A DNA stretch of 64,000 nt from an uncultured Planctomycetota bacterium (GCA_963737655.1 CAVTTN010000002.1:6848001-6912000); one strand, 5' to 3'; positions 11,701 through 45,336 are shown, counted from the first letter of the stretch. Notes: a model not told the origin generated them from the sequence alone. Program-made: numbers and translations.

Positions 11701-12486
11701 GTCCAGGGGGAGCTGGCCGAGGATCGAGCGTTCGAGCTCCTGGCGGGGGACGTCCAGCTTCACCTTGAGCTGGTTCTCCTTGTCCCCCCGGTTGATCGCC
11801 AGGACGCGGTGGGGCGGGATGTGGCCGACGGGCTCGGAATAGGCGAAATAGTCGCGATATTCGAGGCCCTGGCCCTCGGGCACGCTCTCCGCCTTGGTCG
11901 TGGCCACCTTGCCCAGCTTCCACACCGTCCGGCGGACGGCCTCGCGGACGATCGCCAGCTCGTTGATCGACTCCGAGAGGATGTGGCCGACGCCTTCGAG
12001 GACGCTCTCGGGCGTTTCCAGGCCATTCTCGGCGTTGACGAACTCGGCGGCGGCGGCGGCCAGGTCGGTCAGGGTCTCGTCCCGGTTCCAGATCCGCAGC
12101 GCCAGGGGCTCCAGGCCCTTCTCGCGGGCCTCGCTCGCCTTGGTCCGCTTCTTGGGCTTGTACGGGAGGTACAGGTCTTCGAGCCTCTTGGGATTGTCGG
12201 CCGCCTTGATCGCGTCGCGGAGGTCGTCGGAGAGCTTGCCCTGGGCCTCGATCGCCTTGAGGATCGTCTCCTTCCGCTCGGCCAGGTCGCGCAACCGCTT
12301 GACCCGCGCCTGGATCTCCCGGATCGCGACCTCGTTCAGGTTGCCGGTCCGCTCTTTTCGGTAGCGGGTGATGAACGGCACCGTGTTGCCCTCGTCGAGC
12401 AACTGAACGACGCTCTCGACCTGGACGCGCCGGATTTGCAAATCCTGCGCGATCCGGCCCAGGTCGACCGGGATCGGGGTTTCCAT
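8735..12486 (-). CDS. tex: Tex family RNA-binding protein, frameshifted near 10885, with a large low-complexity insert
   Basis: N-part: GNTVPFITRYRKE, EDLYLPYK, AIDPGFRTGCK, IGNGTACRE. C-part: VNEAGASVYSAS, GVGLYQHD, HhH and S1 (NVVDFGAFVDIG). The two frames join by restoring one base. Confidence 0.9.
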
Positions 12487-21438: not shown

Positions 21439-22180
21439 CCTCCGCGAACCCCGATTCGTCCGCCTCGTCCGCCTGGCGATCGGCGGCCTGACGACCCTCC
21501 CCGCCGGGCGGTTCCGCCAACCGGTCTCGGAGCGCGACCTCGCCGCCTCGCGGTTCGCCTTCCCCCTGGTCGGCGCCTATCTCGGCCTGATCCTGGCGGC
21601 CGTCCAGGTGGTTCTGGAACGATGGGGGGTTGGCGAAGGTCCGTCGGCCTGGGTCATCGTGGCGATGGCGGCGGGCCTGACCGGCGGCCTCCATCTCGAC
21701 GGCCTGGCCGATACCGCCGACGGCCTGTTCCTCGCCGGAGGCCCCGACCGGCGATTGTCCGCGATGCGTGACCCGAGGATCGGCAGCTTCGGGGTGATCG
21801 CGGTCGTCCTGGTCCTCCTGGGGAAATACGCGGCCCTGGGGAACCTGTCGGTTCCCGAGCGAGTCGTGAGGCTGATCGGGGCGTTCGCGGTCAGCCGGAC
21901 CCTCCTGATCGTGGCCGCCGGGTCGGCACCTTACGCCAGGCCCGAGGGGACGGGCCGGACGATCATCGACGCCGGGACTCCGGGAGAGGCTCTCATCGCC
22001 TCGGCCGGGGTCTGCCTGATCGGTGCCCTGACCGGGGGGAGCCGGGGTCTGCTCGCCTCATTGGCCAGCCTGGCCGTGGTCCTCATCCTGGTCCGGGTCG
22101 CCGATCGCCGGATCGGGGGGATCACCGGAGACATCCTGGGAGCCGCCGTCGAGCTCGCCGAGCTGACGTATCTCCTGTAG
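21431..22180 (+). CDS. cobS: Adenosylcobinamide-GDP ribazoletransferase
   Basis: TGGLHLDGLADTADG, MRDPRIGSFG, GGITGDILGA. Confidence 0.95.
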   Translation: MPDLREPRFVRLVRLAIGGLTTLPAGRFRQPVSERDLAASRFAFPLVGAYLGLILAAVQVVLERWGVGEGPSAWVIVAMAAGLTGGLHLDGLADTADGLFLAGGPDRRLSAMRDPRIGSFGVIAVVLVLLGKYAALGNLSVPERVVRLIGAFAVSRTLLIVAAGSAPYARPEGTGRTIIDAGTPGEALIASAGVCLIGALTGGSRGLLASLASLAVVLILVRVADRRIGGITGDILGAAVELAELTYLL

Positions 22181-22387
22181 GGTGCATGCAATGCACCGTC
22201 ATGTCGGGTGCATGCAATGCACCAACCCGCGGCGGGCGAAGCCCGCTTCCTTGGGATCGTCGGAACCGATCGGGAGAGGCGGGGGGTTGTTGCGGGCTTC
22301 GCCCGAGGCGGGTTGGTGCATTGCATGCACCCTACATGACGGTGCATTGCATGCACCCTACATGACGGTGCATTGCATGCACCCTAC
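22177..22387. repeat. REP cluster, family B (GTAGGGTGCATGCAATGCACC): two forward and three reverse copies
   Basis: Copies at 22177 and 22203 (forward) and at 22315, 22341 and 22367 (reverse), with a 26-bp period. Confidence 0.92.
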
Positions 22388-22515
22388 AGGGATCGCTTCC
22401 CCTGCATCCCGACCGTTCCATTCAAGCCGCGTGACGCGATCCGTCGATACAACCGGACATACGGTCCTTTCCGCGCCCGATTCCGGTCCGGGAACTCCTG
22501 GGGGAACCCCTGTCG

Positions 22516-24992: not shown

Positions 24993-25074
24993 CGGTCGTC
25001 TCGCCGCGAGATCGGTCGGTGAGGCGGCCCGGTCCGTGGCCCTCGAAGGCGGCTCATTCTCGGGTCGCAACCTC

Positions 25075-25133
25075 GTAGGGCAGGCCTTGGCCTGCCGTCC
25101 TCGCGGATCTCGGCAGGCCAAGGCCTGCCCTAC
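25075..25133. repeat. REPIN, family C (GTAGGGCAGGCCTTGGCCTGCC)
   Basis: Inverted pair of 22-bp palindromic units. Confidence 0.9.
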
Positions 25134-25242: not shown

Positions 25243-27936
25243 TCAATCCGCCACCCGGGCCGGCTGGGGGATCGTCAACACCTTGGGCTGGGTCTCTCGC
25301 CTCCGTTCGTTCCTCCGGTGGATCAGCCAGTGGCCGATCGGGACGAGCAGGGGACGGACCAGGATCGCATCCACGACGATGCCCACCACCAGCGCGAACC
25401 CCAGTTGCTTCAGCGACCCCAGGGGGCTGAACAGCATGGCCGCGAAGCTGCATGCGGTGATCGCCGCCGCCGAGGAGATCAGCCCGCCGGTCTGGGCGAT
25501 CGCGCGATTGATCCCCGCCTTCAGGCCCAGGACTCGCGTCTCTTCCTTCAACCGGGTCATCAGGAAGATGTTGTAATCCACGCCCACCGCCACCAGGAGC
25601 ACGAACAGGAAGTACGGGACCTTCCAGTCCAGCCCGTCGTGGCCGAGGATCGAGACGAAGACCAGGTGCGTGGTCCCCAGGGCGAAGGCGTAGGTCAGGA
25701 GCATCGTCGCCACCAGGTTCAGGCAGGCCCAGCCGTCCCGGAGGGTCACGAGCAAGACGAGGAAGACGCCGATGGGCACGACGATCCACGTCTGCCTCTG
25801 GTCCGAGCGGGTCAGGGTCCACACGTCGGCGCTCTCGGCGTTGGCGCCGGAGATCCCGAGCGAGACGGGGAAGGGGGTCCGCTCGGTCAGGTAGTCTCGG
25901 AGGCGTTTGCGGAGGGTCAAGACCTGCTCCATCGCCTCGTTGGAGAACATCCGGTGGTCCTGCTCGACGTCGAACCGGGCGAGGCGGCCGTCGGGCGAGA
26001 GGTAGGCGTCGAAACTCTTCTGCAACTCGGGATGTTCGCGGATGTCGCCGGGGGTGATGAGCAGGCGATTGAGCGTCTCGTGCCCCACCGGGTCGCGGAG
26101 GATCTTGGTGAGTTCCTGATTGGCCCTCTCGGCGCCGTCGGCGATCTGCGAGGCCCCCTTGGAGGCGGCGTCGAGCTCGCGGAGCATCTGCTCGCGGGGG
26201 TCGTCGACCTTGTTGGCGGCGGTCGTCTTCTTGTCCTCGTGGGACTCCGGCTTCTTCGCCCCGAACAGGGCGGCGGACGCCTGGCGGAGGCCCGAGGCGA
26301 CGGAGTCCCGGGCTTCCTTGTCGGTGATCGGGCCCCCGGTCAGCGGCAATCCGGTGATCTTTTCGAGCTTCAAAGCAAGCTGGAGCTTGACCTTGCCCTC
26401 GGCCAGGCCGTCCCGGAGCTTGCGGGCCCCTTCGGCCATCCGGCGGAAGCCGTCGTTGACCTCGGTGAGCCGGGATTCGATCCTCGCCTTCTCCAGGGGG
26501 GCCGGGCTGCCCAGGGGTTGGGTGGCGGAGCGGACCTCGGCGATCTTCTTCTGGGTCAAGTAGCGGCTGACGTCGTCGATCAGGGCGAGGCCCTCGGAAT
26601 CGCGGAGGTCGCGGTCGGTCCGGAGCACGATCGCCAGGGGCGCCACCCGTCCCGGGCCGAACTTGTTGGGCTCGGAGAGCATCGCCAGGGCCTTCACCGC
26701 CGGGGTGTCCTTCGGGAGCTCGCTAAACAGGTCCTGGAGGAACTCGGTTCGGACGCCGATCACGGCCACCGGCACCAGCACCAGGATGGCCGCCAGCCAC
26801 GTCCGAATCGGCCGGGCCAGGACGCGATGACCCACGTCGTCCCAGAAGCCGGTGGAGGGGGCCGTCAGGCCCGCGAACGACTTCGGCCGCAGGCGGGCCA
26901 GCAGGATCAACAACGCCGGGGTGAACGTCAGGCCGACGAGGACCGTGATCCCCAGCCCCAGGGCCACGCTCGGCCCGGTGCTCGAAAACAGCTTGAACCG
27001 GGTCGTCCCCATCAGGGAAAGCCCCACGATCACCGTCCCGGCGCTGGTCAGCACGGGCTCGAACGAGCGTTTCAACGTCGCCCTCATCGCCCCGGCGGGA
27101 TTCGCCGCGTTCCAGTGCTCGCCGAACCTCCAGGAGAGGAACAGGCAGAAATCGGTCCCGCAGCCGAACAACAGGACGACCAGGAACAGCTCGACCAGGG
27201 GGGAGACCTCCCAGCCCGCCAGGGCCAGCCACGCCAGGACGCTCCGGGACAGCACCAGCCCGATCCCGATCGTCACCAGGGGGATCGTCGCCAGCAGGAA
27301 CGAGCGATAGACCAGCAGCAACACGCCCAGGAGGAGGAACACCGTGGCATAGGCGGCGCGGTCCAGCGACTGCCGGATCTTCTGCATGTAATCGCGGCCG
27401 ATCACGGCGTCGCCGGTCCACTCCACCAGGAGCCCCTCGGGAGGAGGGCCGAGCCTCTTAGGCTTGGCCCGTTCCTGGAGCCAGACGACGGCCGCCTGGA
27501 GACTCGGCGAGACGAACGCCGTCTTGAACGGGATCACCAGGAGCTGGACCGTCCGGTCCCGGCTGACGAGCCTCTGGGCGATCTCCGGGGCCGACGCCGG
27601 GCCGAGGACGCGGAGGATGTCGGCCGGTCGGCGGGGGTCCTCGAATCCGGCGGCCATCTTGCGGGCGAATTCCCGGTCCTCGGTCGTCAGGCCGGCGGGC
27701 CTCTCCATCGCGACGACGGCGATGGCCTGGGACGCCTGGTCGGGCCAGGTCTGGCGGACGAGCTCGGCCACGCGGATGCTCTCGGTGTCGGCGGGCAGGA
27801 GGTCGGCCTGCCCCTCGGCGGCCAGGCGGGTCAGGCTGGGCGAGACGGCCAGGGCGACGACGGCCACGGCGAACCAGAACAGGACCACCCGGCCGGGGTG
27901 GCGGGTCACGACGAGGCGCAAGAAGTCAAGCGGCAT
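25243..27936 (-). CDS. MMPL/RND family transporter
   Basis: Two TM bundles with FGCGTDFCLFL and AVGVDYNIFL motifs, and a large periplasmic loop. Confidence 0.93.
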   Translation of the reverse strand: MPLDFLRLVVTRHPGRVVLFWFAVAVVALAVSPSLTRLAAEGQADLLPADTESIRVAELVRQTWPDQASQAIAVVAMERPAGLTTEDREFARKMAAGFEDPRRPADILRVLGPASAPEIAQRLVSRDRTVQLLVIPFKTAFVSPSLQAAVVWLQERAKPKRLGPPPEGLLVEWTGDAVIGRDYMQKIRQSLDRAAYATVFLLLGVLLLVYRSFLLATIPLVTIGIGLVLSRSVLAWLALAGWEVSPLVELFLVVLLFGCGTDFCLFLSWRFGEHWNAANPAGAMRATLKRSFEPVLTSAGTVIVGLSLMGTTRFKLFSSTGPSVALGLGITVLVGLTFTPALLILLARLRPKSFAGLTAPSTGFWDDVGHRVLARPIRTWLAAILVLVPVAVIGVRTEFLQDLFSELPKDTPAVKALAMLSEPNKFGPGRVAPLAIVLRTDRDLRDSEGLALIDDVSRYLTQKKIAEVRSATQPLGSPAPLEKARIESRLTEVNDGFRRMAEGARKLRDGLAEGKVKLQLALKLEKITGLPLTGGPITDKEARDSVASGLRQASAALFGAKKPESHEDKKTTAANKVDDPREQMLRELDAASKGASQIADGAERANQELTKILRDPVGHETLNRLLITPGDIREHPELQKSFDAYLSPDGRLARFDVEQDHRMFSNEAMEQVLTLRKRLRDYLTERTPFPVSLGISGANAESADVWTLTRSDQRQTWIVVPIGVFLVLLVTLRDGWACLNLVATMLLTYAFALGTTHLVFVSILGHDGLDWKVPYFLFVLLVAVGVDYNIFLMTRLKEETRVLGLKAGINRAIAQTGGLISSAAAITACSFAAMLFSPLGSLKQLGFALVVGIVVDAILVRPLLVPIGHWLIHRRNERRRETQPKVLTIPQPARVAD

Positions 27937-28115: not shown

Positions 28116-28286
28116 GGAGGGCCTCCTCCTACGGAGTGCGGAGTGCTGAGCCCCTTCCGTAAGGCAGGCCTCGGCCTGCCGAGACGCCAGGCCGGCAGGC
28201 CGAGGCCTGCCCTACGAGAGATGGTCGTCCCCTGCGACCGCGAATCGCCGCGCCCGCGGCACTCCGCACTCCGGAGGAGGCCCTCC
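28116..28286. repeat. Family C REPIN (28159-28215) nested in a 28-bp outer inverted repeat
   Basis: Outer arms ggagggcctcctcc(ta)cggagtgcggagtgc / gcactccgcactccggaggaggccctcc; inner gtaaggcaggcctcggcctgcc / ggcaggccgaggcctgccctac. Confidence 0.85.
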
Positions 28287-28432: not shown

Positions 28433-28744
28433 ATGTCGTACGGCGGAAGCGCGGATGCCACCGGGATTCAGGTCTCATTCCTGGACCAGACCGGGGCCAA
28501 ATCGGTCAAGGCCGTGATCGCGTTCAGCGTCCCGGTCAGCCGAATTTTGCCAAACATCATCACCAAGATGAACCTGCCGACGGTCTCGCCCGACGGCCAG
28601 CCGATGAGCTATTCGCTCGACCACAAGGAAGGCGGCCGGCGCCTCCTGGAGAGCCAGACCCTGCTGGAGGCGGGCGTGCAGAATGGCGACCACCTGATCG
28701 TCTATCCCGAGGTCGTGGCCGGCTCGGCGCGACGGTCGCGGTAA
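28433..28744 (+). CDS. Ubiquitin-like beta-grasp protein (EsaB/YukD-like)
   Basis: LLESQTLLEAGVQNGDHLIV is like ubiquitin's [20 protein letters not shown]. Ends VVAG-SARRSR. Strong RBS; adjacent to the E2. Confidence 0.85.
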   Translation: MSYGGSADATGIQVSFLDQTGAKSVKAVIAFSVPVSRILPNIITKMNLPTVSPDGQPMSYSLDHKEGGRRLLESQTLLEAGVQNGDHLIVYPEVVAGSARRSR

Positions 28745-28817
28745 CTCCCCCGCGGGGGCGACCTTGCGAACCGTCCCCGGACCCCTTCGAATCGAACCTC
28801 GCGGAGCCCCGAGAGCG

Positions 28818-29543
28818 ATGGCCGGCCCCTCGTCGTATGAATCCCCCCAGATGCGCCGGCTCCGCCACGACGCCAAGGCGATGGAGGAACTCCGCGAGGA
28901 AAGCTCGATCCTCCGGTTCCGCGCCTTCGGCCAGCCGGCCCAGCGGTATCTGATCGAGTTTCGCGGCCGGAGCCTCGCCCGGGACAAGGGGAAGGTGGTC
29001 CATCGCGACTCGCACGAGGTCGAGATCAAGCTCGGCGTGTCGTATCCCCGGACCATGCCGGAGCTTCGGTGGCTCACGCCGATCTACCACCCCAACATCT
29101 CGGAGATCGGCCTGGTCTGCCTCGGCGGTTACGGGACGCACTGGGTCCCCAGCCTCCACCTGGACGACCTCTGCGTGATGCTCTGGGACATGGCCCGCTA
29201 CCACAACTACGACATCCGCAGCCCGTATAACCGCGAGGCCGCCCTCTGGGCCGCCAACCAGACCACCTTCGCCTTCCCCACCGACGCCCGCCCGCTGAAG
29301 GACCGGCGCGCGGCCCTGGGACGGATCGACTACGACCTCAAGTCGGTCGAGCTGGTCAAGGACGCGCCTCCGCCGGTCGAGGCCTCGAAGCCCGTCGAGC
29401 CGCCGCCGAAGCCGCCGTCCCGCAAGAACGACGAACCCATCGAGATCTGCGTGATGGATTTCGAGGTCGATCTGCGAAGGCCCTCACCGCCCCCCGCGCC
29501 CCGGCCCCGGCCGGCGGACCAGGAGGTCATCTTCCTGGATTGA
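28818..29543 (+). CDS. Ubiquitin-conjugating enzyme E2 (UBC fold)
   Basis: YPRTMPEL...TPIYHPNISEIGLVCL (HPN plus catalytic Cys), W-x-P, SPYNREAA; Pro-rich C-terminal tail. Confidence 0.93.
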   Translation: MAGPSSYESPQMRRLRHDAKAMEELREESSILRFRAFGQPAQRYLIEFRGRSLARDKGKVVHRDSHEVEIKLGVSYPRTMPELRWLTPIYHPNISEIGLVCLGGYGTHWVPSLHLDDLCVMLWDMARYHNYDIRSPYNREAALWAANQTTFAFPTDARPLKDRRAALGRIDYDLKSVELVKDAPPPVEASKPVEPPPKPPSRKNDEPIEICVMDFEVDLRRPSPPPAPRPRPADQEVIFLD

Positions 29544-29685
29544 TCGGTTGATCGTTTGATCGATCGATCTCCGCGAACGGCGGCAGGACTCGGACCGGCG
29601 CCCGACGCCGTTTCCTCCTCGGATGAAACGTCCCGGATGGCGCGGGTTCCGTCCGTTCGCGTTGATCGCGTCGAATCGCGCTCTT

Positions 29686-29755
29686 GTAGGGTCCGCTATT
29701 GCGGACCTCTCCGATTTCGATTTGTCGCGAAGTGGTCCGCAATAGCGGACCCTAC
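29686..29755. repeat. REPIN, family A
   Basis: gtagggtccgctattgcggacc / ggtccgcaatagcggaccctac. Confidence 0.9.
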
Positions 29756-29942
29756 AAATACCGCCTTCGACCACGCTCAACCCATGCTTCCGGCCGCGGG
29801 ACGCCCTGAGGAGCGAACGGACCCGCCGGGGGCCGCCCCCGGCTTGACCGGGCCGTCGGCGGCCTGTCCAATGCAGGAACCTGGCCTCGGGTTGGGCGGA
29901 GCGTGGCATCGGGCCGGGCGGACATTCGGGAGCGTCGAGGCC

Positions 29943-32632
29943 ATGAAGCACGATCCGAGAGTCTCCCGGGCCGTGACGTGGCTCCTCGCGTCGCTGTGGA
30001 TCGGGCCGGCGATCGCTGGCGCGGCGGACGGTTATGTCCCGTTCGAGGGCGAGAAGTCCTCCTGGCACGAGGGGTTCGACCGCTTCGATTTCGTGATGGA
30101 CGAGGGCACCCTGGAGGTCTCGCCCTTCAAGAAGCCCGAGAGGGAGGGCTTCGGGGTCGGAGGCCCCGAGGCGGGGAAGCGCCGGTGCCTCGTGATCGTC
30201 CCCAAGCAGCCCGCCCCCGGCCAGCCCTGGGCGTGGCGAGGCCAGTACTGGGACCATGAGCCCCAGGCCGAGGTCGAGCTGCTCCGTCGGGGCTTCCACG
30301 TCGCGTTCATCACGCCCGACCCGGGCAAGCCGTGGGAGGCGTGGCACGCCTACCTGACCGAGAAGCACGGCCTTTCCCCGCGTCCCGCGTTCGTCGGGAT
30401 GAGCAAGGGCGGGGTCAACGCCTATGAGTGGGCCGCCGCCCATCCCGACAAGGTCTCGTGCATCTACGCGGACAACCCCGCGATCCGTCCGGCGCCTTCG
30501 CAAAGCTCGGGGACCTGGCGGCGCACGAGGTCGCCCTCCTGAACGTCTGCGGCAGCCAGGATTTCCTCCTGGAACGGCACACCCTGGCGATCGAAGCCCG
30601 CTATCACCAGCTCGGCGGCCGGATCACCGTGATGATCAAGGAAGGCCCGGCCCACCATCCTCATAGCCTCCGCGACCCCGGGCCGATCGCCGACTGGATC
30701 GTCGAGCACGTCCGCCCCGAGGCCGACCGGCCCGGCTTCTCCGGCTCGGCCTTCGTGAAGTCGTCTTACTACGGCCCGGGGGTCGAATTCGTCCCCCTGG
30801 AGAAGGAGAAGACCTTCGTCACCTGCCGGGGGCCCGGGTTCGTGCCGTGCTACGAGCGTTTCGACGCCCGGACCGACAGCCCGTGGGGCGTCACGGGGAT
30901 GGCGGTGATCGCGCCGAAGACCGCCGCCCCGGGGATGCCCTGGGTCTTCCGGGCCGACCCGATCGGCCGGGAGGCGCCCGTCGATCAGGCCCTCCTGGCC
31001 GAGGGGTTCCACATCGTGGTGGCGCCCCTGGTCGCCCAGGCGGGGCCGGTCCGGAGCCAGTGGGACGAGCTTTACAAGCGACTCGTCGCCCAGGGCTTCT
31101 CCACCCGTCCCGTCCTGGAAGGGGCCGGGGCGGCGGCCGGAGAGGCGTATGCCTGGGCGATCGAGAACCCGGAGAAGGTCTCGTGCATTTACGGGGAGAA
31201 CCCGGCCCTCCGCAGCCTGATGGCCCCGGGATCGCTGCTGGACCGGCTCGAACCGCTCGCCCGCGCCAAGGTGCCCCTGATCCACGCCTGCGGCAGCCTC
31301 GACCCGTGGCTCGAAAGCCAGACCCGGGCGGCCGAGGCGCGGTATCAGGCGCTGGGCGGCCGGATGACGGTCCTCATCGACGAGGGCAAGGGCCACTTCC
31401 CCACGGCCCCGAGAGACCCGAAGCCGGTCGTGCAATTCGTCCTCGCCCAGCAGCCCAAAGCGTCGGCCAAGGCCGAGGCCAGGCCGCCAGACTACCGCTT
31501 CGACCGCGAGATCTCCCGGGAAGTCCTGGAGAACTACCTCTCCCGGGCGATCTCGATGGAGGGCCTGCTCAACGGTCGGGGTGACCTGGACGACAACATC
31601 CGGATGGTCAAGGACACCGGGGCCAAGTTCGTCGGGCGGGCCCTGTGCCTGTGGGGAGGGGAGGCCGACCTGCTCCGCAACCTCGACCGGGCCCGTCAGC
31701 AGGTCCCGAAGCTCCACGCCGCCGACCCCGACCTGGTCCTCCAGGCCTGCATCTTCGAGATCGTGACCGCCCAGGTCGAGCGGGTTCCGGTCCCGGACTG
31801 GGCGTTCGTCGCCCTGGGGCGGCCGGTCGAATCACGAAATTTCCGATACGCCGACATGCTCTACCCCGACGGCCGCCGGGTGAACCACTGGCGGAGGGGC
31901 CAGTCGGTCCCGGACGTCAGCCGGCCGGAGACGAAGCTCTGGTTCTTCTTCCTGGCGGCGTCGTTCCTCGACCTGGGCTTCGAGGCGATCCACCTCGGGC
32001 AGACCGAGTTGATGAACGGGAACGACCGCGACCTGGCCCATTATTCCGAGGTCCTCGGCCTGATCCGCGCCCACGCGGCCACCCACGCCCGCCGCCACCT
32101 GGTCCTCTGCGACTCGCACGTGCCCGGCGGCGGGCTGGTCCGCGACGGGCGGCTGCTGATGGACTTCCACTCGTTCCCCCTGAGGATCAAGGAGGTCCCG
32201 GATTCGCCCCAGAAGGCGGTCCTGGAGGCGGGATTCTCCGACAGCCTCTACGGGCGGAGCAAGGGCGGAGTCACGCCCAGCGGCTGGTCGTGCGAGCACT
32301 TGCCCTACCTCGTCGAGCTCGACAACTGGGGGGCCAGCCGGCACCCGGGCGAGGCCGGGCAGGGCGGGATCTGGGTCTGGGGTTATGATGAAATCACCTG
32401 GTTCGCCCACCAGCCGGAGGCCGTCCGGGCCTCATGGCTCCGCTACGCGAACGACTGGGTCCGCGCCACCGATCCAAACGGCCACCTCCAGATGCCCGGC
32501 AGCCGCACTTTGAGGTCGCCCCTCGACGACAAGCGATGGTATTTCGCCAATCGCCCGAGCCCGGCCGTGCCCGAGGGCCTGGGGGACGAGGCGGCGATCC
32601 GGGCGATCTGGGCGGACGATTCCAGTAAATGA
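29943..32632 (+). CDS. Secreted tandem alpha/beta-hydrolase with an extra C-terminal domain; frameshift near 30490
   Basis: Signal peptide and GMSKGG nucleophile motif. A second repeat has GAGAAA at the equivalent position. The frames join as YADNPAIRP-AFAKLGDL with +1 base. Confidence 0.75.
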
Positions 32633-32734
32633 GGACCTGTCCCGCGGTCTTGATCCTTGCGGGGCCGCCGCCCAAGATGATCGGAGGGCGGCCCTCCACC
32701 TCGCCGACTCGCCGAACCGCCTCCGAGGCCCTTG

Positions 32735-33962
32735 ATGGATGACGACGACTCGCTGACCTTCCTGGACGACGACGCCCCGGGCGAAGCCCCGGCCCCCCCG
32801 GACGACGGGCCCGACCTCGTCATCGACGATTCCGACCGCTATTCCCGCCTGAGACTGATCCCCTGGTGGCGCCAGGAGCGACTGGCGGCGGCCCGGGTGC
32901 TGGTCGTCGGCGCGGGCGCTCGGCAATGAGGTCCTGAAGAACCTGGCCCTTCTCGGCGTGGGCCGGACCGTCGTGATCGACCTGGATTGCGTCGAGCCGT
33001 CGAACCTCTCGCGATCGGTCCTGTTCCGGGCCGAGGACGGCGGCCAGCCCAAGGCGGAGGTCGCCGCCAGGCGCTCGATGGAGATCAATCCGGAGGTGGT
33101 CGTCTCGCCGATCCGGGGGGACGTGATCACCGACCTGGGCCTGGGCCTCTTCGCCGACGTGGACGTGGTCATCGGCTGCCTGGACAACCGCGAGGCCCGG
33201 CTCTGGGTCAATCGCCAGTGCTGGAAGGTCGGGACGCCCTGGGTGGACGCCGGGATCCAGGAGATCCAGGGCGTCGTCAAGGTGTTCGTCCCGCCCGATT
33301 CCGCCTGCTATGAATGCGCGATGACGGAAAAAGACTATCAATTGCTCAATCTTCGCTACAGTTGCCCGCTGCTCCGTCGCGAGGACATCCTGGCCGGCAA
33401 GGTGCCGACGGCGCCGACGATCGCCTCGATGATGGCGGCGATGGAAGTGCAGGAGGCGCTGAAGCTCCTCCACGGATTGCCCGTCCAGGCGGGTTCGGCC
33501 CTGGTGTTCAACGGAGTGACGAACCAGTTCTATTCGACGAAGCTGCCGTTCCGCGAGGACTGCCTGAGCCACGAGACCTATCCCGAGCCATCGGCGCTGG
33601 AAATCGGCCATTCGGCCACGGCCCGAGCGCTTTTTGACCTCGCCCGGCCGACCGTGGGAAGCCCGATGAGCCTGGCGCTGGACCGCGACCTCGTCACGTC
33701 GCTGGATTGCCCCCGGTGCGGGTGGCATCGGGAGGTCTTCCGCCCCCGGACCAAGGTCACGATGGCCGAGGCGGTCTGCCCGAAGTGCCGCGAAGGCGCG
33801 AGGCCGGAGGTCGTCGGCTCGATCGACGAAGGCTCGCCGCTGGCCGACCGGTCGCTGGCGGACCTGGGCGTCCCGGCTTACGATATCGTCCGGGTCGATG
33901 GGTCCGAGGGCAGCGGATTCTTCCTCCTGGCCGGCGACCGCGACGCCGCCTGGAAGTTGTGA
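32735..33962 (+). CDS. ThiF/UBA-type E1 activating enzyme; frameshift near 32920
   Basis: DRYSRL...RVLVVGAG[A]LGNEVLKNL, DLDCVEPSNLSR, CLDNREAR, CYEC, putative catalytic RYSCP, and C-terminal CPRC/CPKC. Confidence 0.9.
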
Positions 33963-33974
33963 GGACGATCGATC

Positions 33975-34718
33975 ATGGCCACCGCGACGGAATCCACGAC
34001 GACGCCTCGTCCCTCGAAGATTGAGCCGGTCCCGGCCCTCCACAATGGCGACCGCCTGAGCGCCGCCGAGTTCGAGAGGCTCTATCGCGAGACGCCGACG
34101 AAATTCAAGGCCGAGCTGATCGAAGGAGTCGTGTACGTGGCCTCACCCGTCTCGAATTCTCATGGCTCATCGCACTTCGATGCCGCCGGATGGCTCCTGG
34201 TCTACAGGGCGTCAACGCCCGGGATCGTCGGTTCGGACAACGGGACGATCCGTCTCGATCTCGACAATCGGCCCCAACCCGACCTCCACCTGCGAATTAC
34301 CCCGGAGTACGGTGGCCGGGCCCGGCTGAGCGAGGATGATTACGTCGTCGGCGCCCCGGAGTTCGTCCTGGAGGCCTCGTTTTCCAGCGCCAGCTACGAC
34401 CTCCACGACAAACTAAACGCCTATCGCCGGAACGAGGTCCAGGAATACGTGGTCTGGAGGGTCGAGAACCGGGCGATCGACTGGTTCATCCTCCGGGACG
34501 GCCAGTATGAGCGGCTCCCGATCACGCCCGAAGGGCACTACCGAAGCGAAGTGCTGCCGGGCCTCTGGCTCGACCCCAAGGCGATGCTCGACGGCGACCT
34601 CGGGCGAGTCCTGGCGGTCCTCCACCTCGGCCTGGCCAGCCCGGATCATGCCCGGTTCGTGGCCGATCTGCGGGCCCGGATCGCTCCCGACCGCCCGGCC
34701 GGGGAGGCCCGCCCTTGA
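33975..34718 (+). CDS. Uma2/DUF820 family endonuclease
   Basis: LHNGDRL, AELIEGVVY, PQPD, GAPEFVLE, YDLHDK..AY, EYVVW. Confidence 0.9.
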   Translation: MATATESTTTPRPSKIEPVPALHNGDRLSAAEFERLYRETPTKFKAELIEGVVYVASPVSNSHGSSHFDAAGWLLVYRASTPGIVGSDNGTIRLDLDNRPQPDLHLRITPEYGGRARLSEDDYVVGAPEFVLEASFSSASYDLHDKLNAYRRNEVQEYVVWRVENRAIDWFILRDGQYERLPITPEGHYRSEVLPGLWLDPKAMLDGDLGRVLAVLHLGLASPDHARFVADLRARIAPDRPAGEARP

Positions 34719-36145
34719 GCGACGAGGACATCCAGTTCGACGACGTGACCTATCGCGAGCCCCACAAGGCCCGGCGGCCGGACTTCGAGCGCAAGCTCGC
34801 CTGCTCGGCCTACATGGTCCCCGGCGCGATCGACTTGCCCATCTTCCTCGACCTCGAGCCGGCCGACGCGATCGAGCGCCACGCCCTGCGCGACGTCTCG
34901 GTCGAGCTCGGCGGCATCCTCCTGGGCAAGGAGTGCATCGACGAGGAGACGGGCCGCCCGTTCGTCTGGGTCACCGAGTCGATCGAGGCGAAGCATTACG
35001 AGAACACCCAGGCGAGCTTCACGTATACTCACGACTCCTGGGAGGAGATCACCCGCGAGCGCGACGCGAAGCATCCCGACCTGGACATCGTGGGCTGGTA
35101 TCACACCCACCCGGATTTCGGGATCTTCCTCTCGGGTCATGACCTGTTCATCCATCACAATTTCTTCGCCCAGCCGCTGCAGGTCGCGTATGTGGTGGAC
35201 CCGATCCGCCAGACTCGCGGGTTCTTCCAGTGGCGGGACGGGCAGATGGTCCAGGTCGGCGGGTTCCACCTGACGGCCCCCCGGGCCGATCGGCCGAAGC
35301 TCGCGAGGTTCGTCAACGAGCTGGAAGGGCTCCCCTCCGCCGACGGCGGCGGAGGGTCCGGGATGTCCCCCCGACTGGAGGCCGAGCTGATCGCCATGCT
35401 TTCGCGACCCCACACCGTGGCGGCGGCGACCGATCGGTCGCAGACGGCCGCGATCTTCACCCTGATCGGGGTGTTCCTGGCGTCCCTGGTCTTCGCCGGG
35501 GCCTACTGGCTCCAGACGATCGGCAAGGGGGTGCAGGACCAGGCCAAAGCGATCGAGATGCTGGCCCAGGCCCAGGAAAAGGCGGCGGCGGCCTCGGAGA
35601 AGTCGCTGGGCTCCGAGCGCGTCCGCGCCAAGGAGGAGGCGCTCGACTCGCTCCTCAGAGACGTGAAGATCGACCCCGCCGCCTCGCCCGCGAAGGTCCT
35701 CTCCCGCCTGACCGAGGCGAACGCGAAGAAGGACGAGGCCGTCCGGGCGATGGAGAGGATTCGCACGGAGAAGGAGGCGCTCGTCGACAAGGCCACGGCC
35801 CTCGACGGCCAGCTCCGGCTCCGGGAGCGGGAGTACGAGAACAACCTGGCGAAGGTCCAGGAGGACGAGAAGAGGGCCCGGGCCGAGCAGGAGAGGCTGG
35901 AGGGGGAGGTCGATTCGCTCAAGAAGGACCTCGAGGCCAAGGCCGGGGTGATCCAGGACGACAAGACCGGCGAGCTCCTCCGCCGGTACAACTGGTCGTG
36001 GTATCTCGCGCTGATCGGCTGGATCGGCTTCCTCCTCTGCGGGGTGGGCCTGGGGGCGGTGTTCGCCCGGCAGTCGGAGGAGGCGGAATCGCGGTCCCGG
36101 GAGGTGGCGAGCCACGATCCCGAGCCTCCCCACCAGATCACCTGA
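34715..36145 (+). CDS. JAB/MPN+ (Mov34) metallo-isopeptidase with two TM helices flanking a coiled coil
   Basis: E-LGGIL...VGWYHTHPDFGIFLSGHD (JAMM HxHx7Sx2D), followed by TM, heptad-rich region and TM. TTG start overlaps the Uma2 stop. Confidence 0.92.
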   Translation: MSDEDIQFDDVTYREPHKARRPDFERKLACSAYMVPGAIDLPIFLDLEPADAIERHALRDVSVELGGILLGKECIDEETGRPFVWVTESIEAKHYENTQASFTYTHDSWEEITRERDAKHPDLDIVGWYHTHPDFGIFLSGHDLFIHHNFFAQPLQVAYVVDPIRQTRGFFQWRDGQMVQVGGFHLTAPRADRPKLARFVNELEGLPSADGGGGSGMSPRLEAELIAMLSRPHTVAAATDRSQTAAIFTLIGVFLASLVFAGAYWLQTIGKGVQDQAKAIEMLAQAQEKAAAASEKSLGSERVRAKEEALDSLLRDVKIDPAASPAKVLSRLTEANAKKDEAVRAMERIRTEKEALVDKATALDGQLRLREREYENNLAKVQEDEKRARAEQERLEGEVDSLKKDLEAKAGVIQDDKTGELLRRYNWSWYLALIGWIGFLLCGVGLGAVFARQSEEAESRSREVASHDPEPPHQIT

Positions 36146-36196
36146 GAGGCCCGAGCCCGAGAGCCCAAGAGGCGGCGGCCCTCGCCGGTTCCCCCC

Positions 36197-37480
36197 ATGA
36201 AGAGTGTCCTCCTGGCGATCGCGTTGGTCTTGCCGGGGGCCGACGCCCCGGCCGTCGCCCCTCCGCCCGCTCCCGACGCCTCGAGCACCGACCCCGTCCC
36301 GGTCCCCGAGCCGACGGCGAAGGCCGTCCGCTTCTACCGGACGAGGCTGGTCGTCTGGGCCGTGAGCTGGGCCTGGACGCTGGCCATCCCCCTGGTCCTG
36401 GTCGTCACCGGGCTGTCGGCGAGGCTCCGGGCGTTGGCCTGGAGGCTGGGTCGGCGCTGGTTCTTCGCCGTCACGCTCTTCGTCGTGATGTACCTGGTCC
36501 TCGCGTACGTCCTGACGCTCCCCCTGGCGTTTTATTCCGGGTTCTGGCGGCTCAAGCAGTACGAGCTCTCGACCGAGACGTTCGGCGAATGGCTGCTGGA
36601 TTCGCTGAAGGGGCTGGGCGTGGAGGTGGTCACGATCTCGGCCGTGGCGTGGATTCCCTGCCTGCTCCTGGAGAGGAGCCCGAGGCGGTGGTGGCTCTCC
36701 ACGACCCTGCTCTCGGTCCCGATCATGTTCGGCTTCATGTTCCTGGCGCCGATCGCGGTGGACCCGCTCTTCCACGACTTCCACCCCCTCCGGGACAAGG
36801 CCGCCGAGGCCGAGATCCTCGCCCTGGCCCGTCGCGCGGGGATCGACGACGGACGGATTTTCGAAGTGGACATGAGCAAGAAGACCTCATCCGTGAACGC
36901 CTATGTGAAGGGGTTCCTCGGGACCAAGCGAATCGTCCTGTGGGATACCCTGCTGGCGAAGCTCGACCGCCGCCAGGCCCTGTTCGTGATGGGGCACGAG
37001 ATGGGGCATTACGTGCTCGGGCACGTGGTCCGAAGCCTGTTGCTGGGGGCGGTCGGGCTGGGGATCGTCCTGGGGTTCGTCCACCTGGCGGGATCGGCGC
37101 TGATCCGCCGGTTCGGGCCTCGATGGAAGATCGACCGACTCGGCGACCTCGCCGCGTTGCCCTTGCTCCTGTTCCTCGGCCGGGCGTTCGTGCTGGCGGC
37201 GATGCCGATCGGGATGGCCTACAGCCGCTACCAGGAACACGAGGCCGACCGCTTCGCCCTGGAACTGACCCGGGACAACCACGCCGGCGCCTCGGGATTC
37301 GCGAAGATGCAGGACCAGAACCTCAGCTACCCGAGGCCGGACTGGCTCGCCCAACTGTGGATGTCCACGCATCCCTCGCCGGGTGAACGGATCGACTTCT
37401 GCAACACCTATCGCCCCTGGGCCGAGGGCAAGCCGCTCCGATACGCCTCGCTCTTCCAGGAACAGCCGCCAGCCCCGTAG
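36197..37480 (+). CDS. M48 (Ste24/CAAX-like) membrane metallopeptidase
   Basis: NAYVKG, RIVLWDTL, GHEMGH, EHEAD, STHP and multiple TMs. Confidence 0.93.
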   Translation: MKSVLLAIALVLPGADAPAVAPPPAPDASSTDPVPVPEPTAKAVRFYRTRLVVWAVSWAWTLAIPLVLVVTGLSARLRALAWRLGRRWFFAVTLFVVMYLVLAYVLTLPLAFYSGFWRLKQYELSTETFGEWLLDSLKGLGVEVVTISAVAWIPCLLLERSPRRWWLSTTLLSVPIMFGFMFLAPIAVDPLFHDFHPLRDKAAEAEILALARRAGIDDGRIFEVDMSKKTSSVNAYVKGFLGTKRIVLWDTLLAKLDRRQALFVMGHEMGHYVLGHVVRSLLLGAVGLGIVLGFVHLAGSALIRRFGPRWKIDRLGDLAALPLLLFLGRAFVLAAMPIGMAYSRYQEHEADRFALELTRDNHAGASGFAKMQDQNLSYPRPDWLAQLWMSTHPSPGERIDFCNTYRPWAEGKPLRYASLFQEQPPAP

Positions 37481-37677
37481 GGTGCATGAAATGCACCATC
37501 CCGGCTTCGGCTCGCGTGGGATCGAAGATGGTGCATTTCATGCACCCTACGAATCCTGGGCGTCCCGTAGGGTGCATGAAATGCACCATCCCGGCTTCGG
37601 CTCGCGTGGGGTCGAAGATGGTGCATTTCATGCACCCTACGAATCCTGGCCGTCCCGTGGGGTGCATTGGATGCACT
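37477..37677. repeat. Tandem family B REPINs (two 90-bp units plus a partial unit)
   Basis: Near-identical units at 37477-37566 and 37567-37656, each gtagggtgcatgaaatgcacc...ggtgcatttcatgcaccctac. Confidence 0.92.
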
Positions 37678-37685
37678 CGGGCGCC

Positions 37686-38516
37686 TCAGGCCGAGGTGCA
37701 TTGCTTGCTGGAGCAGCCGAAGGTGGAGCAGGCGCCGACGAACGTCCAGCAATCGCGGTGGAAGGGGGTCTTGCACGCGATGCAGACGACGTGGAGGCCG
37801 ACGATCGGGTCTCCGCAGACCTCGCATTGCGGAGGGCCGGCGTCTTCCTCGGCGGGCCCGGCCTCGACGATCTCGATCCCCTCGGCCAGCCGCGACGTCA
37901 CGCCGTGCTGGAGGCAGTCGTGGAGCTTCAACGCCGCTTTCACGGCCGAATCGAGCAGGAGGGCCTGCGTGCCGAGGTTCCGATCGACCTGGACCAGCAG
38001 CCTCTCCGGGTTGATCGACACCAGCATCCCGAACGGCGGGGCGAGCTTGCGGAGGTCGTCCACGGCTTGCCGGGCCTCGGCCGATCGGAGGAACTCGCGG
38101 GCCATGTCGGCGTCGTTGGCCTGGACGACGTACCCGCGGTCGAACTCCGGATGGCCGGCGCGGACCGGCCTCGTCCCTTTCGGGGGCTGAGGAGGCGCCG
38201 GTCGGCCGTATGGGGCCAGCTCGAACCGGAACGGCAAGCCCCGGGCGAACCGCGCGACGACCCGGGTCCTCGGCAACGCCGGCTGGCCCGCCACGACCGG
38301 GGCCAGCCCGACCCTCACGGTCGATCCCAGGTGGCTGAAGCTCACCGTCGGCGGATCGACCATCCCCCGGCTCTCGTATTTCCCGCCGTACCTCGCGGCG
38401 ATCAGGCGATAGGCCCGATGCCTCGTCCCGGTCAGCCCCGCCACCAGCCGGGAGGCCAGGCGGACGATCAGGTAGAGCACGAGGAAGACGACCCCCAGCC
38501 CGATGACCTCTTTCAT
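37686..38516 (-). CDS. Membrane-anchored protein with C-terminal prokaryotic RING finger (Prok-RING_1-like; candidate E3)
   Basis: N-terminal TM and C-terminal CEVC-x10-CIAC-x4-HRDCW-x5-CSTFGC. Confidence 0.82.
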   Translation of the reverse strand: MKEVIGLGVVFLVLYLIVRLASRLVAGLTGTRHRAYRLIAARYGGKYESRGMVDPPTVSFSHLGSTVRVGLAPVVAGQPALPRTRVVARFARGLPFRFELAPYGRPAPPQPPKGTRPVRAGHPEFDRGYVVQANDADMAREFLRSAEARQAVDDLRKLAPPFGMLVSINPERLLVQVDRNLGTQALLLDSAVKAALKLHDCLQHGVTSRLAEGIEIVEAGPAEEDAGPPQCEVCGDPIVGLHVVCIACKTPFHRDCWTFVGACSTFGCSSKQCTSA

Positions 38517-38739: not shown

Positions 38740-39639
38740 GTGACCGACCCGAGCCCTCCGCCCAGCCAGGTCGCCGACTCGCCGGCCCTCGGTCGGTTGT
38801 TCGTCCTGGCCGCCGCGATCTTGTGGAGCGTCGGCGGGGTCGTGGCCAAGGGGCAGACGCTCCCTCCGATCGCCGTTTCGTTCTACCGGAGCTTGTTCGC
38901 CGGGCTGGCGCTCCTCCCGTTCGTCCCCCGGTCGCGATGGGCGTTCCGCCCGGCGATGGTGCCGCTCTCCCTGATCTTCGGCGCGATGATCGGCGTGTAC
39001 ATCGAGGCCATCGCCCGGACGACCGCCGCCAACGCGATCCTCCTCCAGTTCACGGCGATCGTCTGGACCGTGCCCGCCAGCCTTTTCTTGCTGAAGGAGC
39101 GGCCCGACCGGCGGAGCGTGGCCGGGATCGCCGTGGCGACGGTCGGCATCGCGATCATCCTCGCCTGGGGCCGAGGTGGCAAGCCGGGCGAAGGGCTGGG
39201 GATGCTCCTGGGCCTGGCCAGCGGGATCGGCTACGCCGCGGCGATCATCGGGATGAGGTCCATGAGGGACGTCGATCCGATCTGGCTGAGCGCCGTGACG
39301 AACCTCGGAGGCGCCCTGGCGCTGGGGGCCTTCGCCCTGGTCGCGATCGGCCCGATCCCCCTGCCGACGGGCCGGCAATGGCCCATGCTGATCGCCTTCG
39401 GGGTCGTCCAGATGGCGATCCCTTACGCCCTGTTCGCCCGGGGCCTGAAGTCGATCGGCGCCCCCGAGGCGGGCCTGATCTCGCTGCTGGAGCCGGTCCT
39501 GAACCCGATCTGGGTCGTCCTGGTCCACGGAGAGCGGCCCTCGACGTTCACGATCGTCGGCGGCCTCCTGTTGCTGGCCGGGGTGGCGGTCCGTTACGTG
39601 CCGTGGGGTCGTCAACCAAGGCCTGAAAACACCAAGTAG
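38740..39639 (+). CDS. EamA/DMT family transporter
   Basis: About 10 TMs in two EamA repeats; LLEPVLNPIW...GE. Confidence 0.9.
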   Translation: MTDPSPPPSQVADSPALGRLFVLAAAILWSVGGVVAKGQTLPPIAVSFYRSLFAGLALLPFVPRSRWAFRPAMVPLSLIFGAMIGVYIEAIARTTAANAILLQFTAIVWTVPASLFLLKERPDRRSVAGIAVATVGIAIILAWGRGGKPGEGLGMLLGLASGIGYAAAIIGMRSMRDVDPIWLSAVTNLGGALALGAFALVAIGPIPLPTGRQWPMLIAFGVVQMAIPYALFARGLKSIGAPEAGLISLLEPVLNPIWVVLVHGERPSTFTIVGGLLLLAGVAVRYVPWGRQPRPENTK

Positions 39640-39782
39640 GGTGCATGCAATGCACCAATAACGCGGTGGCCATCGGCCACCCTCCGTTTCTCTCTCCCCA
39701 TTCCCGATAGAACGGGGAGACGGAGAGGATCAGGAGGGCGGCCGACGGCCGCCGCGTCGTTGGTGCATGGCATGCACCATAC
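39636..39782. repeat. Family B REPIN
   Basis: gtagggtgcatgcaatgcacc ... ggtgcatggcatgcaccatac. Confidence 0.85.
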
Positions 39783-39800
39783 AGGACTGCCCGGGGCGGG

Positions 39801-44299: not shown

Positions 44300-45336
44300 A
44301 TGAAATCCGTGGGAATCTCGGCCTACCTCGTCAGCCTGATTCCGGGCGTCCTGGCCGTGATGGGGAACGTCCGGGGCGGGCCCTGGGCGCTCGGGGCCGC
44401 GGGCTTCCTCGCCGCGGTGTGCGTGGCCGACTGGTTCCTGAAGGATGACGCCTCGGGCCCCCCCGATCGGCCCGAGTGGACGCCCGACCTCGTGATCGTG
44501 CTTCACCTGCTGGTGAACTCCCTGGCGATCGGGACGTTGCTGTACGGAGTGGCGAGCGGCCATCTGCCCCGCTGGCGGATCAACGACGCCACCCTGTCCA
44601 CCGGCCTGAATTCGGGCCTGTCGGGGATCATCGTCGCCCACGAATTGATCCACCGTCGAGGGCGGTTCTGGCGGGGCGCCGGCGTGTGGAACCTGATGCT
44701 CGTGAACTATTCGCACTTCGCGATCGAGCACGTCCAGGGGCATCACAAGAGGGTCGGGACCCGTCGAGACCCCTCCACCGGCCGACCCGGCGAGGACATC
44801 TTTCGCTACCTTCTGAGGACGATCCCCGGGCAATTCCTCTGCGCCTGACGATCGAGGCCGACCGCCTCCGCCGCGAGGGCCGCGGGCGGTTCGGGCTGGG
44901 CAACTTCGTCGTGGCGGCGACGCTGGGGCAGGGGGTCCTGGCGGCGGGGATCGGCCTGGTCTGCGGGCCTCGGGCGCTGGTCGCCTATCTCGGCCAGGGT
45001 GCGATCGCGGTGGGCCTGTTGCAGGTCATCAATTATCTCCAGCACTACGGGCTGGAGCGGGAGAAGGGCTCGAAGATCGAGCCGGCGCACTCGTGGCAGA
45101 GCGACCGCATCTCCAGTCGTCTGTTGATGCTGGAGCTCCCCAGGCATTCCGACCACCATTGCCACTCGACCCGGCCGTATCACCGATTGGAGTCGATGGA
45201 AGAAAGCCCCGTCCTGCCGATGGGGCTGCTCGGGTCAGTGCCTCTGGTGTTCCTGCCGCCTCTTTGGTTTCACATCGCGAAGAAGGCGAGGAAGCGCGCC
45301 GTGGTGGTCGAGGAGGCATGGAAGCGGGCGGCGTAG
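44300..45336 (+). CDS. Alkane 1-monooxygenase-like membrane di-iron enzyme; frameshift near 44845
   Basis: His boxes HELIH, EHVQGHH, NYLQHYG and LPRHSDHH. Confidence 0.88.

Follow-up and report, generated by a model that had tools for sequence, protein, structure and literature searches.

We describe here a predicted ubiquitin-like conjugation system encoded in a stretch of 64,000 nucleotides from an uncultured Planctomycetota bacterium (GCA_963737655.1, CAVTTN010000002.1:6848001-6912000; the whole stretch is called the window below). The source genome comprises 7.63 Mb in three contigs and is 87.7% complete. Four of the genes concerned lie on the plus strand: a YukD-type beta-grasp ubiquitin-like modifier (Ubl) of 103 amino acids (28433..28744); an E2 conjugating enzyme with an HPN-x7-C motif, a variable Pro-rich linker and a C-terminal acidic-hydrophobic motif (28818..29543); an E1 activating enzyme with an adenylation domain, a zinc site, a candidate catalytic Cys and an extra C-terminal domain (32735..33962); and a JAB/MPN+ peptidase, in which a disordered N-terminal motif and the catalytic domain are followed by a transmembrane (TM) segment, a long helical hairpin and a second TM segment (34715..36145). 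A Ste24-like M48 protease gene follows on the same strand (36197..37480). Convergent with it, on the minus strand, is the gene for a candidate E3 ligase of 276 amino acids (37686..38516), composed of an N-terminal TM segment, a middle domain (residues 28-212) with a predicted TtfA/CCDC47 fold and a C4HC3 finger (223-275). All six genes named by a first-pass annotation of this DNA were recovered in their places by Pfam profile searches, in which UQ_con, ThiF, JAB/Prok-JAB, Prok-RING_1 and Peptidase_M48 were each matched by the expected gene. The annotation had placed five of them on the plus strand within 9 kb, with the sixth convergent; the series is interrupted by a 2.7-kb hydrolase-like gene and a Uma2-family gene.

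The genome contains a single UQ_con match and a single Prok-RING_1 match, both in this cluster. Since the genes are also clustered in relatives, their clustering is not due to chance. As judged from the sequences, the Ubl/E1/E2/RING/JAB set is complete, has invariant catalytic residues and includes two membrane-anchored members. The membrane-tethered set proposed in the first-pass annotation is thus borne out, with the RING gene co-inherited with the Ubl gene.

The Ubl matches Pfam YukD at 54 bits (cut-off 27), and its profile found no real sequence match in the PDB. It is the best-conserved part of the system, with a mean column identity of 88% over 17 aligned sequences, compared with 71% for the E1. 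Gly97 is invariant and is followed in this copy by a variable tail of six residues; it is the C-terminal residue in 6 of 18 orthologues, and the remainder carry 2-11 extra variable residues. Such a variable extension fits what would be expected if the JAB peptidase trims a precursor. In the E2 (UQ_con, 46.5 bits) the HPN-x7-C motif is invariant in 15 of 15 aligned sequences, its Cys codon lying at 29118-29120. The best PDB sequence matches are Ubc13/UBE2N (E 1e-10), and a conserved W-x-P-S loop aligns with that of Ubc13, which is a RING-binding loop. The E1 (ThiF, 143 bits) has about 410 amino acids and a single adenylation domain. Its best PDB matches, UBA7 and UBA1, rank above ThiF; the nucleotide motif and a CxxC/CxxH zinc set are retained, a Cys at the crossover position is invariant (18/18), and the C-terminal part leads in the ESM Atlas to E2_bind/UAE_UbL clusters at 0.77-0.80. 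The JAB peptidase matches JAB at 36.8 bits and Prok-JAB at 34 bits. Its metal site (E64/H130/H132/S140/D143) is invariant in 16 of 16 sequences, and Foldseek ranks 6fju, the Rpn11 homologue of Caldiarchaeum, first among its matches (E 1e-9). A TM anchor had been ascribed to it; the anchoring stands, not as a single anchor but with two hydrophobic segments (245-263 and 431-449) flanking the helical hairpin, which in the model presumably lies outside the cytoplasm.

The nucleotide-binding, zinc and Cys motifs reported earlier for the E1 are all present, but not in one open reading frame (ORF). In this assembly a frameshift near 32918 disrupts the gene within its GxGxxG motif, where a GC run has two bases fewer than in relatives, leaving a 64-codon N-terminal part from 32735 and a C-terminal part that ends at 33962. 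If the frameshift were genuine, the cascade of this strain would be dead or recently dying, an explanation independent of the alternatives considered below. The break does stand in the assembly, the locus has undergone a rearrangement and an insertion, and no second E1 of this type was found in the genome. Against genuine loss, none of 121 otherwise invariant columns is broken in the C-terminal part, as compared with 0-8 in relatives. Of 20 relative loci, 17 have the E1 as one uninterrupted ORF, and the three with a broken E1 belong to genomes 60-72% complete in which other genes are broken too. Within the window, apparent frameshifts also affect tex (8738-12486), a fatty-acid desaturase gene (44300-45333) and the hydrolase-like gene (29943-32632). 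By a crude measure, frame changes occur at 8 of 50 homologous places genome-wide, this E1 included; split-gene patterns number 5 in 134 informative pairs (220 sampled), of which some may be genuine gene splits. Because the invariant columns are unbroken, relatives are intact, window neighbours are split and frame changes occur elsewhere in the genome, the E1 break is most likely an assembly error, and we consider genuine loss distinctly unlikely.

The candidate E3 gene scores 29.7 bits against Prok-RING_1 (cut-off 29.1), and 33.5 bits in the genome-wide search. A longer product of 323 amino acids from a TTG start was rejected; relatives and an upstream GAGGAG point to the ATG at 38516. The N-terminal hydrophobic segment (residues 4-22), with basic residues directly after it, supplies the TM anchor that had been claimed for this protein. 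Eight finger ligands (C230, C233, C244, C247, H252, C255, C262 and C267) form a C4HC3 set that is invariant in 24 of 24 sequences. In the structure model (pLDDT, the predicted local distance difference test score, of 82, from 11 sequences) a helix is formed at 253-259, and about 52 residues align to RING and U-box domains at a root-mean-square deviation (rmsd) of about 2 A.

C1 domains require an upstream His ligand, and the upstream His of this finger is not conserved. This point bears on the possibility that the finger is not part of an E3 at all, and is instead a C1/PHD-like lipid- or peptide-binding module, the E2 finding its targets itself. Such a reading draws on a Pfam C1_1 match (E 0.0016), on the top four PDB sequence matches of the finger, all of which are C1 domains (E 5e-4 to 1e-3), on an orphan copy of the gene in genome G026, and on the proposal that Bil E2s work without an E3 (PMC11601596). 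The invariant C4HC3 set, the helix and the extended alignment to RING and U-box domains argue against it, as does the loss of the gene along with the Ubl gene in one genus (g16, described below). PHD and C1 domains are not among the matches listed in the structure comparison, which gives the best 50, and they are not thereby excluded. We regard a non-E3 finger as improbable, and consider that the RING protein probably acts as an E3, mainly because RING and Ubl are co-inherited.

In the model the middle domain of the RING protein has the fold shared by TtfA and CCDC47. The match to mycobacterial TtfA (Z 14.2, rmsd 3.9, 160 residues aligned; Foldseek E 9e-7) is followed by matches to the multipass-translocon chain 7tut_4 (Z 13.2, rmsd 9.6, 212 residues aligned, flanking helices included) and to an SND3-translocon chain (Z 10.9, rmsd about 9 with flanking helices); we take both chains to be CCDC47. 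Foldseek matched CCDC47-type chains with E values of 2e-4 and 1e-3. The sequence profile of the RING protein matched neither TtfA nor CCDC47 in the PDB, and the ESM Atlas leads for the middle domain are unnamed clusters at 0.89-0.90 and DUF3156/DUF3137 at 0.82-0.83. TtfA has one TM segment and a cytoplasmic domain, and its residues 1-205 bind the multipass transporter MmpL3 (PMC6593404). Here too a single N-terminal TM segment precedes a cytoplasmic domain of the same fold; unlike TtfA and CCDC47, with which it shares 8-14% identity, this domain is fused to a RING finger. In our literature search no paper naming TtfA together with CCDC47 was found. The closest named relatives of the RING protein, at 41-71% identity, are labelled Isosphaeraceae, Singulisphaera, Tautonia, Tundrisphaera, Paludisphaera, Aquisphaera or, more broadly, as planctomycetes.

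On the evidence of these relatives, the family was taken to be Isosphaeraceae, and 60 genomes of the family, each at least 90% complete, were compared. Records named Singulisphaera, Tautonia and Tundrisphaera carry the set. The usual gene order is EamA (reverse), RING, Ubl, E2, E1, (Uma2), JAB, M48, MMPL, all on one strand except EamA, and a single inversion of the block from Ubl to M48 would yield the layout found in the window. The convergent orientation of the RING gene was therefore rejected as meaningful, being a product of this inversion. GTAG-type palindromic repeats lie in both gaps flanking the inverted block (28185-28218 and 37471-37683), the latter array marking its right end. We take these palindromes to be of the repetitive extragenic palindromic (REP)-like kind. 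Several families of them occur in intergenic positions of the window, the others lying at 22171-22392, 25072-25105, 29684-29757 and 39630-39787, and the stop codon of the M48 gene falls within one of the repeats.

The Ubl gene is present in 54 of the 60 genomes, RING in 55, M48 in 52 and MMPL in 56. RING presence agrees with that of Ubl in 59 of 60 genomes, and that of M48 in 48, leaving 12 mismatches; the presence profiles contain few independent events, and hence no statistic is given. Both Ubl and RING are missing from all five genomes of genus g16 (G018 and G471-G474), which retain M48 and MMPL. No UQ_con match was found in the four g16 genomes tested, and at one g16 locus (L062) the order is EamA-M48-MMPL, the cassette being gone. 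This genus thus provides a natural knock-out for comparative work. In seven genomes that have Ubl and RING (g20, g19 and g314) no M48 was found with our query. With contig breaks counted as unlinked, RING lies within 10 kb of Ubl in 30 of 54 genomes, and M48 in 31 of 47. Where M48 is apart from Ubl, it adjoins MMPL in 15 of 21 genomes; M48 and MMPL are at most 6 kb apart in 31 of 49 genomes, and may form a functional pair of their own.

Outside the family, this type of E1 was found in 38 of 400 sampled genomes of the phylum, and 40 distant E1 loci from these 38 genomes, many on short contigs, were compared. RING genes occur in 18 of the 40, in other gene orders, and neither M48 nor MMPL is present in any of them. 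Among 21 distant RING loci, all likewise without M48 and MMPL, 11 have a gene for a TM/TtfA-like/RING protein beside genes of the Ubl system; of the other ten, all nine genomes tested hold a UQ_con gene. The RING part of the synteny proposed by the first-pass annotation is thus upheld both by the matched presence within the family and by the distant E1 loci, and the sequences indicate that RING belongs to the system. The M48 protease, by the same comparison, is probably a neighbour by descent and no member; its own Pfam matches are to Peptidase_M48 (124 bits) and M48_N. It was rejected as a core member on account of the 12 mismatches, its retention in five genomes without the system, its attachment to MMPL when unlinked and its absence from the distant loci.

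Several other arrangements were seen among the distant loci. A second, patchy operon type (L051-L059 and L091-L099) has the order Ubl-E1-JAB-TM/FHA-RINGs-trypsin-like DUF4190-E2, and many of its E2s have a Cys-rich tail. As a paralogue, the Ubl of this type also occurs in the family, where 12 of the 60 genomes have it. At one such locus (L056:5661-7445) Ubl and E1 share one open frame, which is either a natural fusion or an assembly artefact. Loci of family f28 (L100-L104, L107 and L108) have the order E1-Ubl-E2-JAB, with a Ser/Thr kinase gene adjoining in the three that were checked. Four tandem RING genes, coding for about 270-290 amino acids each, stand directly upstream of E1 at L077:1297-4866, an array that suggests an expansion of substrate adaptors.

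These distributions bear on the proposal, made in the first-pass annotation, of ubiquitin-like quality control resembling endoplasmic-reticulum-associated degradation (ERAD). In such a pathway the RING protein would tag membrane proteins that are misfolded or have not been assembled, and these would then be destroyed by M48, as in the first-pass annotation, or by FtsH. The RING and JAB proteins are both anchored, the middle domain resembles translocon-associated CCDC47 chains, and an FtsH-like gene is present in the genome. M48 is, moreover, often a neighbour of Ubl, as counted above, and at locus L033 it is still adjacent after a shift upstream of RING. However, the 12 disagreements between M48 and Ubl, the preference of unlinked M48 for MMPL and its absence from all 40 distant E1 loci speak against destruction by M48. 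Furthermore, a search of the 88%-complete genome for Cdc48 (TIGR01243) gave nothing above the cut-off, and the two hits to the proteasome family PF00227 are read from their sequences and neighbours as HslV and Anbu. We consider the ERAD-like proposal unlikely. Unlinked to the locus is a gene for an AAA ATPase of 457 amino acids with a helical-repeat N-terminus (G000:C2:466819-468192; L191), the second-best hit to the Cdc48 profile, below the cut-off; it is a candidate for handling tagged proteins.

The gene order also raises the possibility that the system serves specifically to regulate the MMPL lipid transporter next to it. The TtfA-like domain would then bind MMPL, as TtfA binds MmpL3, and deliver the tag to it. 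In the window the MMPL-family RND (resistance-nodulation-division) transporter gene, which is next after M48 in the usual order, lies at 25243..27936 on the minus strand. The top fold match of the middle domain is TtfA, whose MmpL3-binding residues were mentioned above (PMC6593404). In addition, MMPL lies within 12 kb of Ubl in 22 of 50 genomes and stands directly after JAB at loci where M48 is missing (L032, L041 and L042). Yet MMPL is kept in five of five g16 genomes that have no system, was not found at threshold in four genomes that have one, and is absent from all 40 distant E1 loci and all 21 distant RING loci; the transporter itself scores far below the MmpL3 and HpnN cut-offs. As MMPL is not co-inherited in g16 or the distant loci, it was rejected as an obligatory partner, and a role dedicated to it appears highly improbable.

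The first-pass annotation had also suggested a membrane-sensing defence pathway. In one form of this idea the system would act against phages as Bil does, with the Ubl put on phage proteins at the membrane and the outer JAB hairpin sensing infection. Characterised bacterial cascades (Bil and the type II cyclic oligonucleotide-based antiphage signalling system, CBASS) are defensive, RING-bearing operons have been predicted to be likewise (PMC10557695), and the occurrence of the present system across the phylum is patchy (38/400). Within the family, by contrast, 54 of 60 genomes retain it, its place in the chromosome is stable, and Ubl identity is 68-97%. Its neighbours in the window are transporters, cobalamin genes and tex. 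PADLOC gave weak matches for E1 and JAB and none for Ubl, E2 and RING; among the 42 other genes of the window only the Uma2 gene and a second one like it gave hits, weak ones to PDC-S03. Retention at 90%, the Ubl identity, the top conservation of the Ubl and a neighbourhood without recognised defence systems make a housekeeping role a better fit than mobile, selfish or antiviral roles. From the sequence comparison the system looks like a housekeeping one and no mobile defence unit; membrane-sensing defence fits poorly, and we regard anti-phage action as quite improbable.

A further feature of the system is a set of short motifs at the ends of its enzymes. The acidic-hydrophobic motif at the E2 C-terminus, past the variable Pro-rich linker, was found in 58 of 65 loci. 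Some genomes are represented twice among these loci, which give 50 different Ubl/tail pairs. Of the seven tails without the motif, one or more have it in another frame; where it is present, a second copy often lies upstream. A comparable motif lies at the JAB N-terminus, which is disordered in the model (residues 1-10, pLDDT 39), and looser versions occur on E1 and on the RING linker. The motifs are rare: patterns for them, which were derived from these same proteins, match two of 5,757 called C-termini and one of the 5,757 N-termini, and at any position they match 16 proteins of the proteome. The Ubl face assigned to the beta2/alpha1 groove, with positions set from the alignment and the general beta-grasp layout, is basic in these systems. 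In the seven loci of family f28, where no RING was detected in the locus, the groove is acidic, and the E2 tails (7/7) and JAB starts (6/6) are basic. This flip of charge together with the Ubl groove, in loci without a detected RING, indicates the Ubl as the partner of the tails.

The sequences thus suggest that the tails of E2 and JAB, oppositely charged to the beta2/alpha1 groove of the Ubl, dock there in the manner of SUMO-interacting motifs (SIMs). When a complex was predicted between the Ubl and the C-terminal 40 residues of the E2, the score was 0.26 against a mark of 0.32, in a run without folded controls; this result speaks neither for nor against the docking. SIMs bind the beta2/alpha1 groove of SUMO, which is lined with basic residues, and occur at the C-terminus of SAE2 and in extensions of SENP proteases (PMC12687455). 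As in those proteins, short hydrophobic strands are found here in disordered ends of conjugating and deconjugating enzymes. In contrast with them, the strands are on a bacterial E2 and JAB and have a charge-reversed version in f28, and the docking is deduced from conservation and co-variation.

Taken together, these features lead us to favour reversible tagging of membrane proteins over degradative quality control, defence, a non-E3 finger or an MMPL-specific role. To the proposal that this is a vertically inherited housekeeping Ubl conjugation system at the cytoplasmic face of the membrane, in which a RING ligase tags membrane proteins reversibly, we assign an even chance. By analogy with Bil, Caldiarchaeum and eukaryotic cascades, the JAB peptidase would first trim the Ubl to Gly97; the E1 would then adenylate the Ubl and form a thioester with it, and the Ubl would be handed on to the E2 cysteine. 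The finger of the anchored RING protein would bind the charged E2, its TtfA/CCDC47-fold domain would select membrane-protein substrates, and the anchored JAB would later take the tag off. The hydrophobic, oppositely charged tails of E2 and JAB, and more weakly those on E1 and the RING linker, would dock in the beta2/alpha1 groove and hold the enzymes on tagged proteins. The M48 protease is not needed for this mechanism. Rather than a signal for the proteasome, the tag is more likely to be a mark set reversibly on membrane proteins for regulation or assembly. A more specific version remains tentative: a constitutive, RING-dependent membrane pathway in which a TtfA/CCDC47-fold ligase surveys the folding, assembly or transporter activity of multipass proteins, with a SUMO-style docking code for E1, E2 and peptidase. 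If true, this pathway would correspond, in bacteria, to translocon-linked membrane quality control, with a housekeeping instead of a defence function.

Several observations weigh against reversible membrane-protein tagging. The assembly has a broken E1, genus g16 does without the system, and 24 of 54 genomes have RING on a different contig from Ubl or over 10 kb away from it. One genome that is 99% complete (G026; L061) has the TM/TtfA-like/RING gene and no UQ_con match. The fold match of the finger is weak, with RING, U-box and ZZ domains tied at Z 5.3-6.0, and its closest PDB sequences are the C1 domains noted above. Likeness of fold to TtfA and CCDC47 shows no function, and these matches are followed by type III secretion system chaperone/YbjN-like proteins at Z 6-8.6. 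Concerning the tails, the motif patterns come from the very proteins they describe, the charge flip involves about three related groups only, and E2s of type-B operons have no such tail.

The remaining genes of the region appear to be outside the system. The hydrolase-like gene inserted between E2 and E1 (29943..32632, plus strand) is frameshifted near 30490 and has an internal duplication; its C-terminal ORF had no match in 20 relative loci. The Uma2-family gene between E1 and JAB (33975..34718, plus strand), identified by Pfam, stands at the same position in 7 of 20 relative loci, is sometimes doubled there and appears to be a passenger. Both were rejected as members. The EamA transporter gene (38740..39639, plus strand), assigned by Pfam, is transcribed away from RING, as it is in many relatives. 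The split in tex falls inside its YqgF domain. A scan for promoters and terminators gave a chance-level result.

Among characterised systems, those of bacteria (Bil, Bub and CBASS) act without a RING E3 (PMC11601596, PMC10557695). Bil lacks an E3 and has an E1 of IAD-AAD-CYS architecture, and the Bub system relies on Ser/Tyr nucleophiles and on BubE (PMC11601596). The present system shares with Bil and Bub a Ubl, an E1, an E2 and a JAB of the kind that trims the precursor. It differs from Bil in its single-adenylation-domain E1 of about 410 amino acids, its RING protein and its membrane anchors, and the match to BilD is weak; it differs from Bub (6E/DUF6527) in its invariant E2 Cys, which is replaced by Ser in Bub (PMC11601596). 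The ubiquitin operon of Caldiarchaeum subterraneum is a five-gene minimal cascade of Ub, E1, E2, RING and an Rpn11-like protein (PMC4197634). It resembles the five genes described here, and our JAB has its top Foldseek match in the Rpn11 homologue of that operon. In our set, however, the Ubl is YukD-like and both JAB and RING have membrane anchors, and a 20S proteasome was not found in the 88%-complete genome. The membrane RING ligases of eukaryotic ERAD (Doa10/MARCH) are of the C4HC3 type, as is the membrane-anchored finger here. The present protein has one TM segment only, and neither Cdc48 nor a 20S proteasome was found.

Operons with Ubl, E1, E2, RING and JAB have been reported in Planctomycetes, Actinobacteria and Acidobacteria (PMC4197634), which confirms the first-pass statement that such operons and Prok-RING domains had been predicted earlier, planctomycetes included. 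The prediction is attributed to Burroughs et al. 2011 (PMID 21547297; cited in PMC4197634, PMC3417536, PMC10557695, PMC7159879), and planctomycete E2s were noted by Arcas 2013 (cited in PMC8382908). These operons are described as mobile and of sporadic occurrence, with close relatives often lacking them (PMC3417536, PMC4197634), and mobile, selfish or antiviral roles have been proposed for them (PMC3417536, PMC4197634, PMC10557695). The portion of PMC11354881 that was available contains no mention of planctomycetes. Our literature search, with subscription journals and supplements outside its coverage, found no experimental study of the RING-bearing class and nothing linking Isosphaera with ubiquitin or RING. 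The system is thus a further case of an operon class predicted in 2011, apparently without bench study. The paper of Burroughs, Iyer and Aravind reportedly may already depict the Isosphaeraceae locus.

In its five components and in their Pfam families (Prok-RING_1 being PF14446) the set agrees with the 2011 operons. Where the latter are said to be sporadic and mobile, the present one is found in 54 of 60 genomes of its family. The Pirellulaceae layout has two JABs, a second E2-like gene and two RINGs; here there is one tag, one E1, one E2, one RING and one JAB, which is the smallest RING-bearing set. It makes testable both the use of RING E3s by bacteria and a housekeeping role of any bacterial ubiquitin-like system. 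The TtfA/CCDC47 fold names a concrete class of substrates to seek and a possible tie to eukaryotic membrane-protein biogenesis factors. New with respect to the systems compared above are the retention across the family, the fold of the RING middle domain and the SIM-like tails with their charge flip, which together make this family a good experimental entry point.

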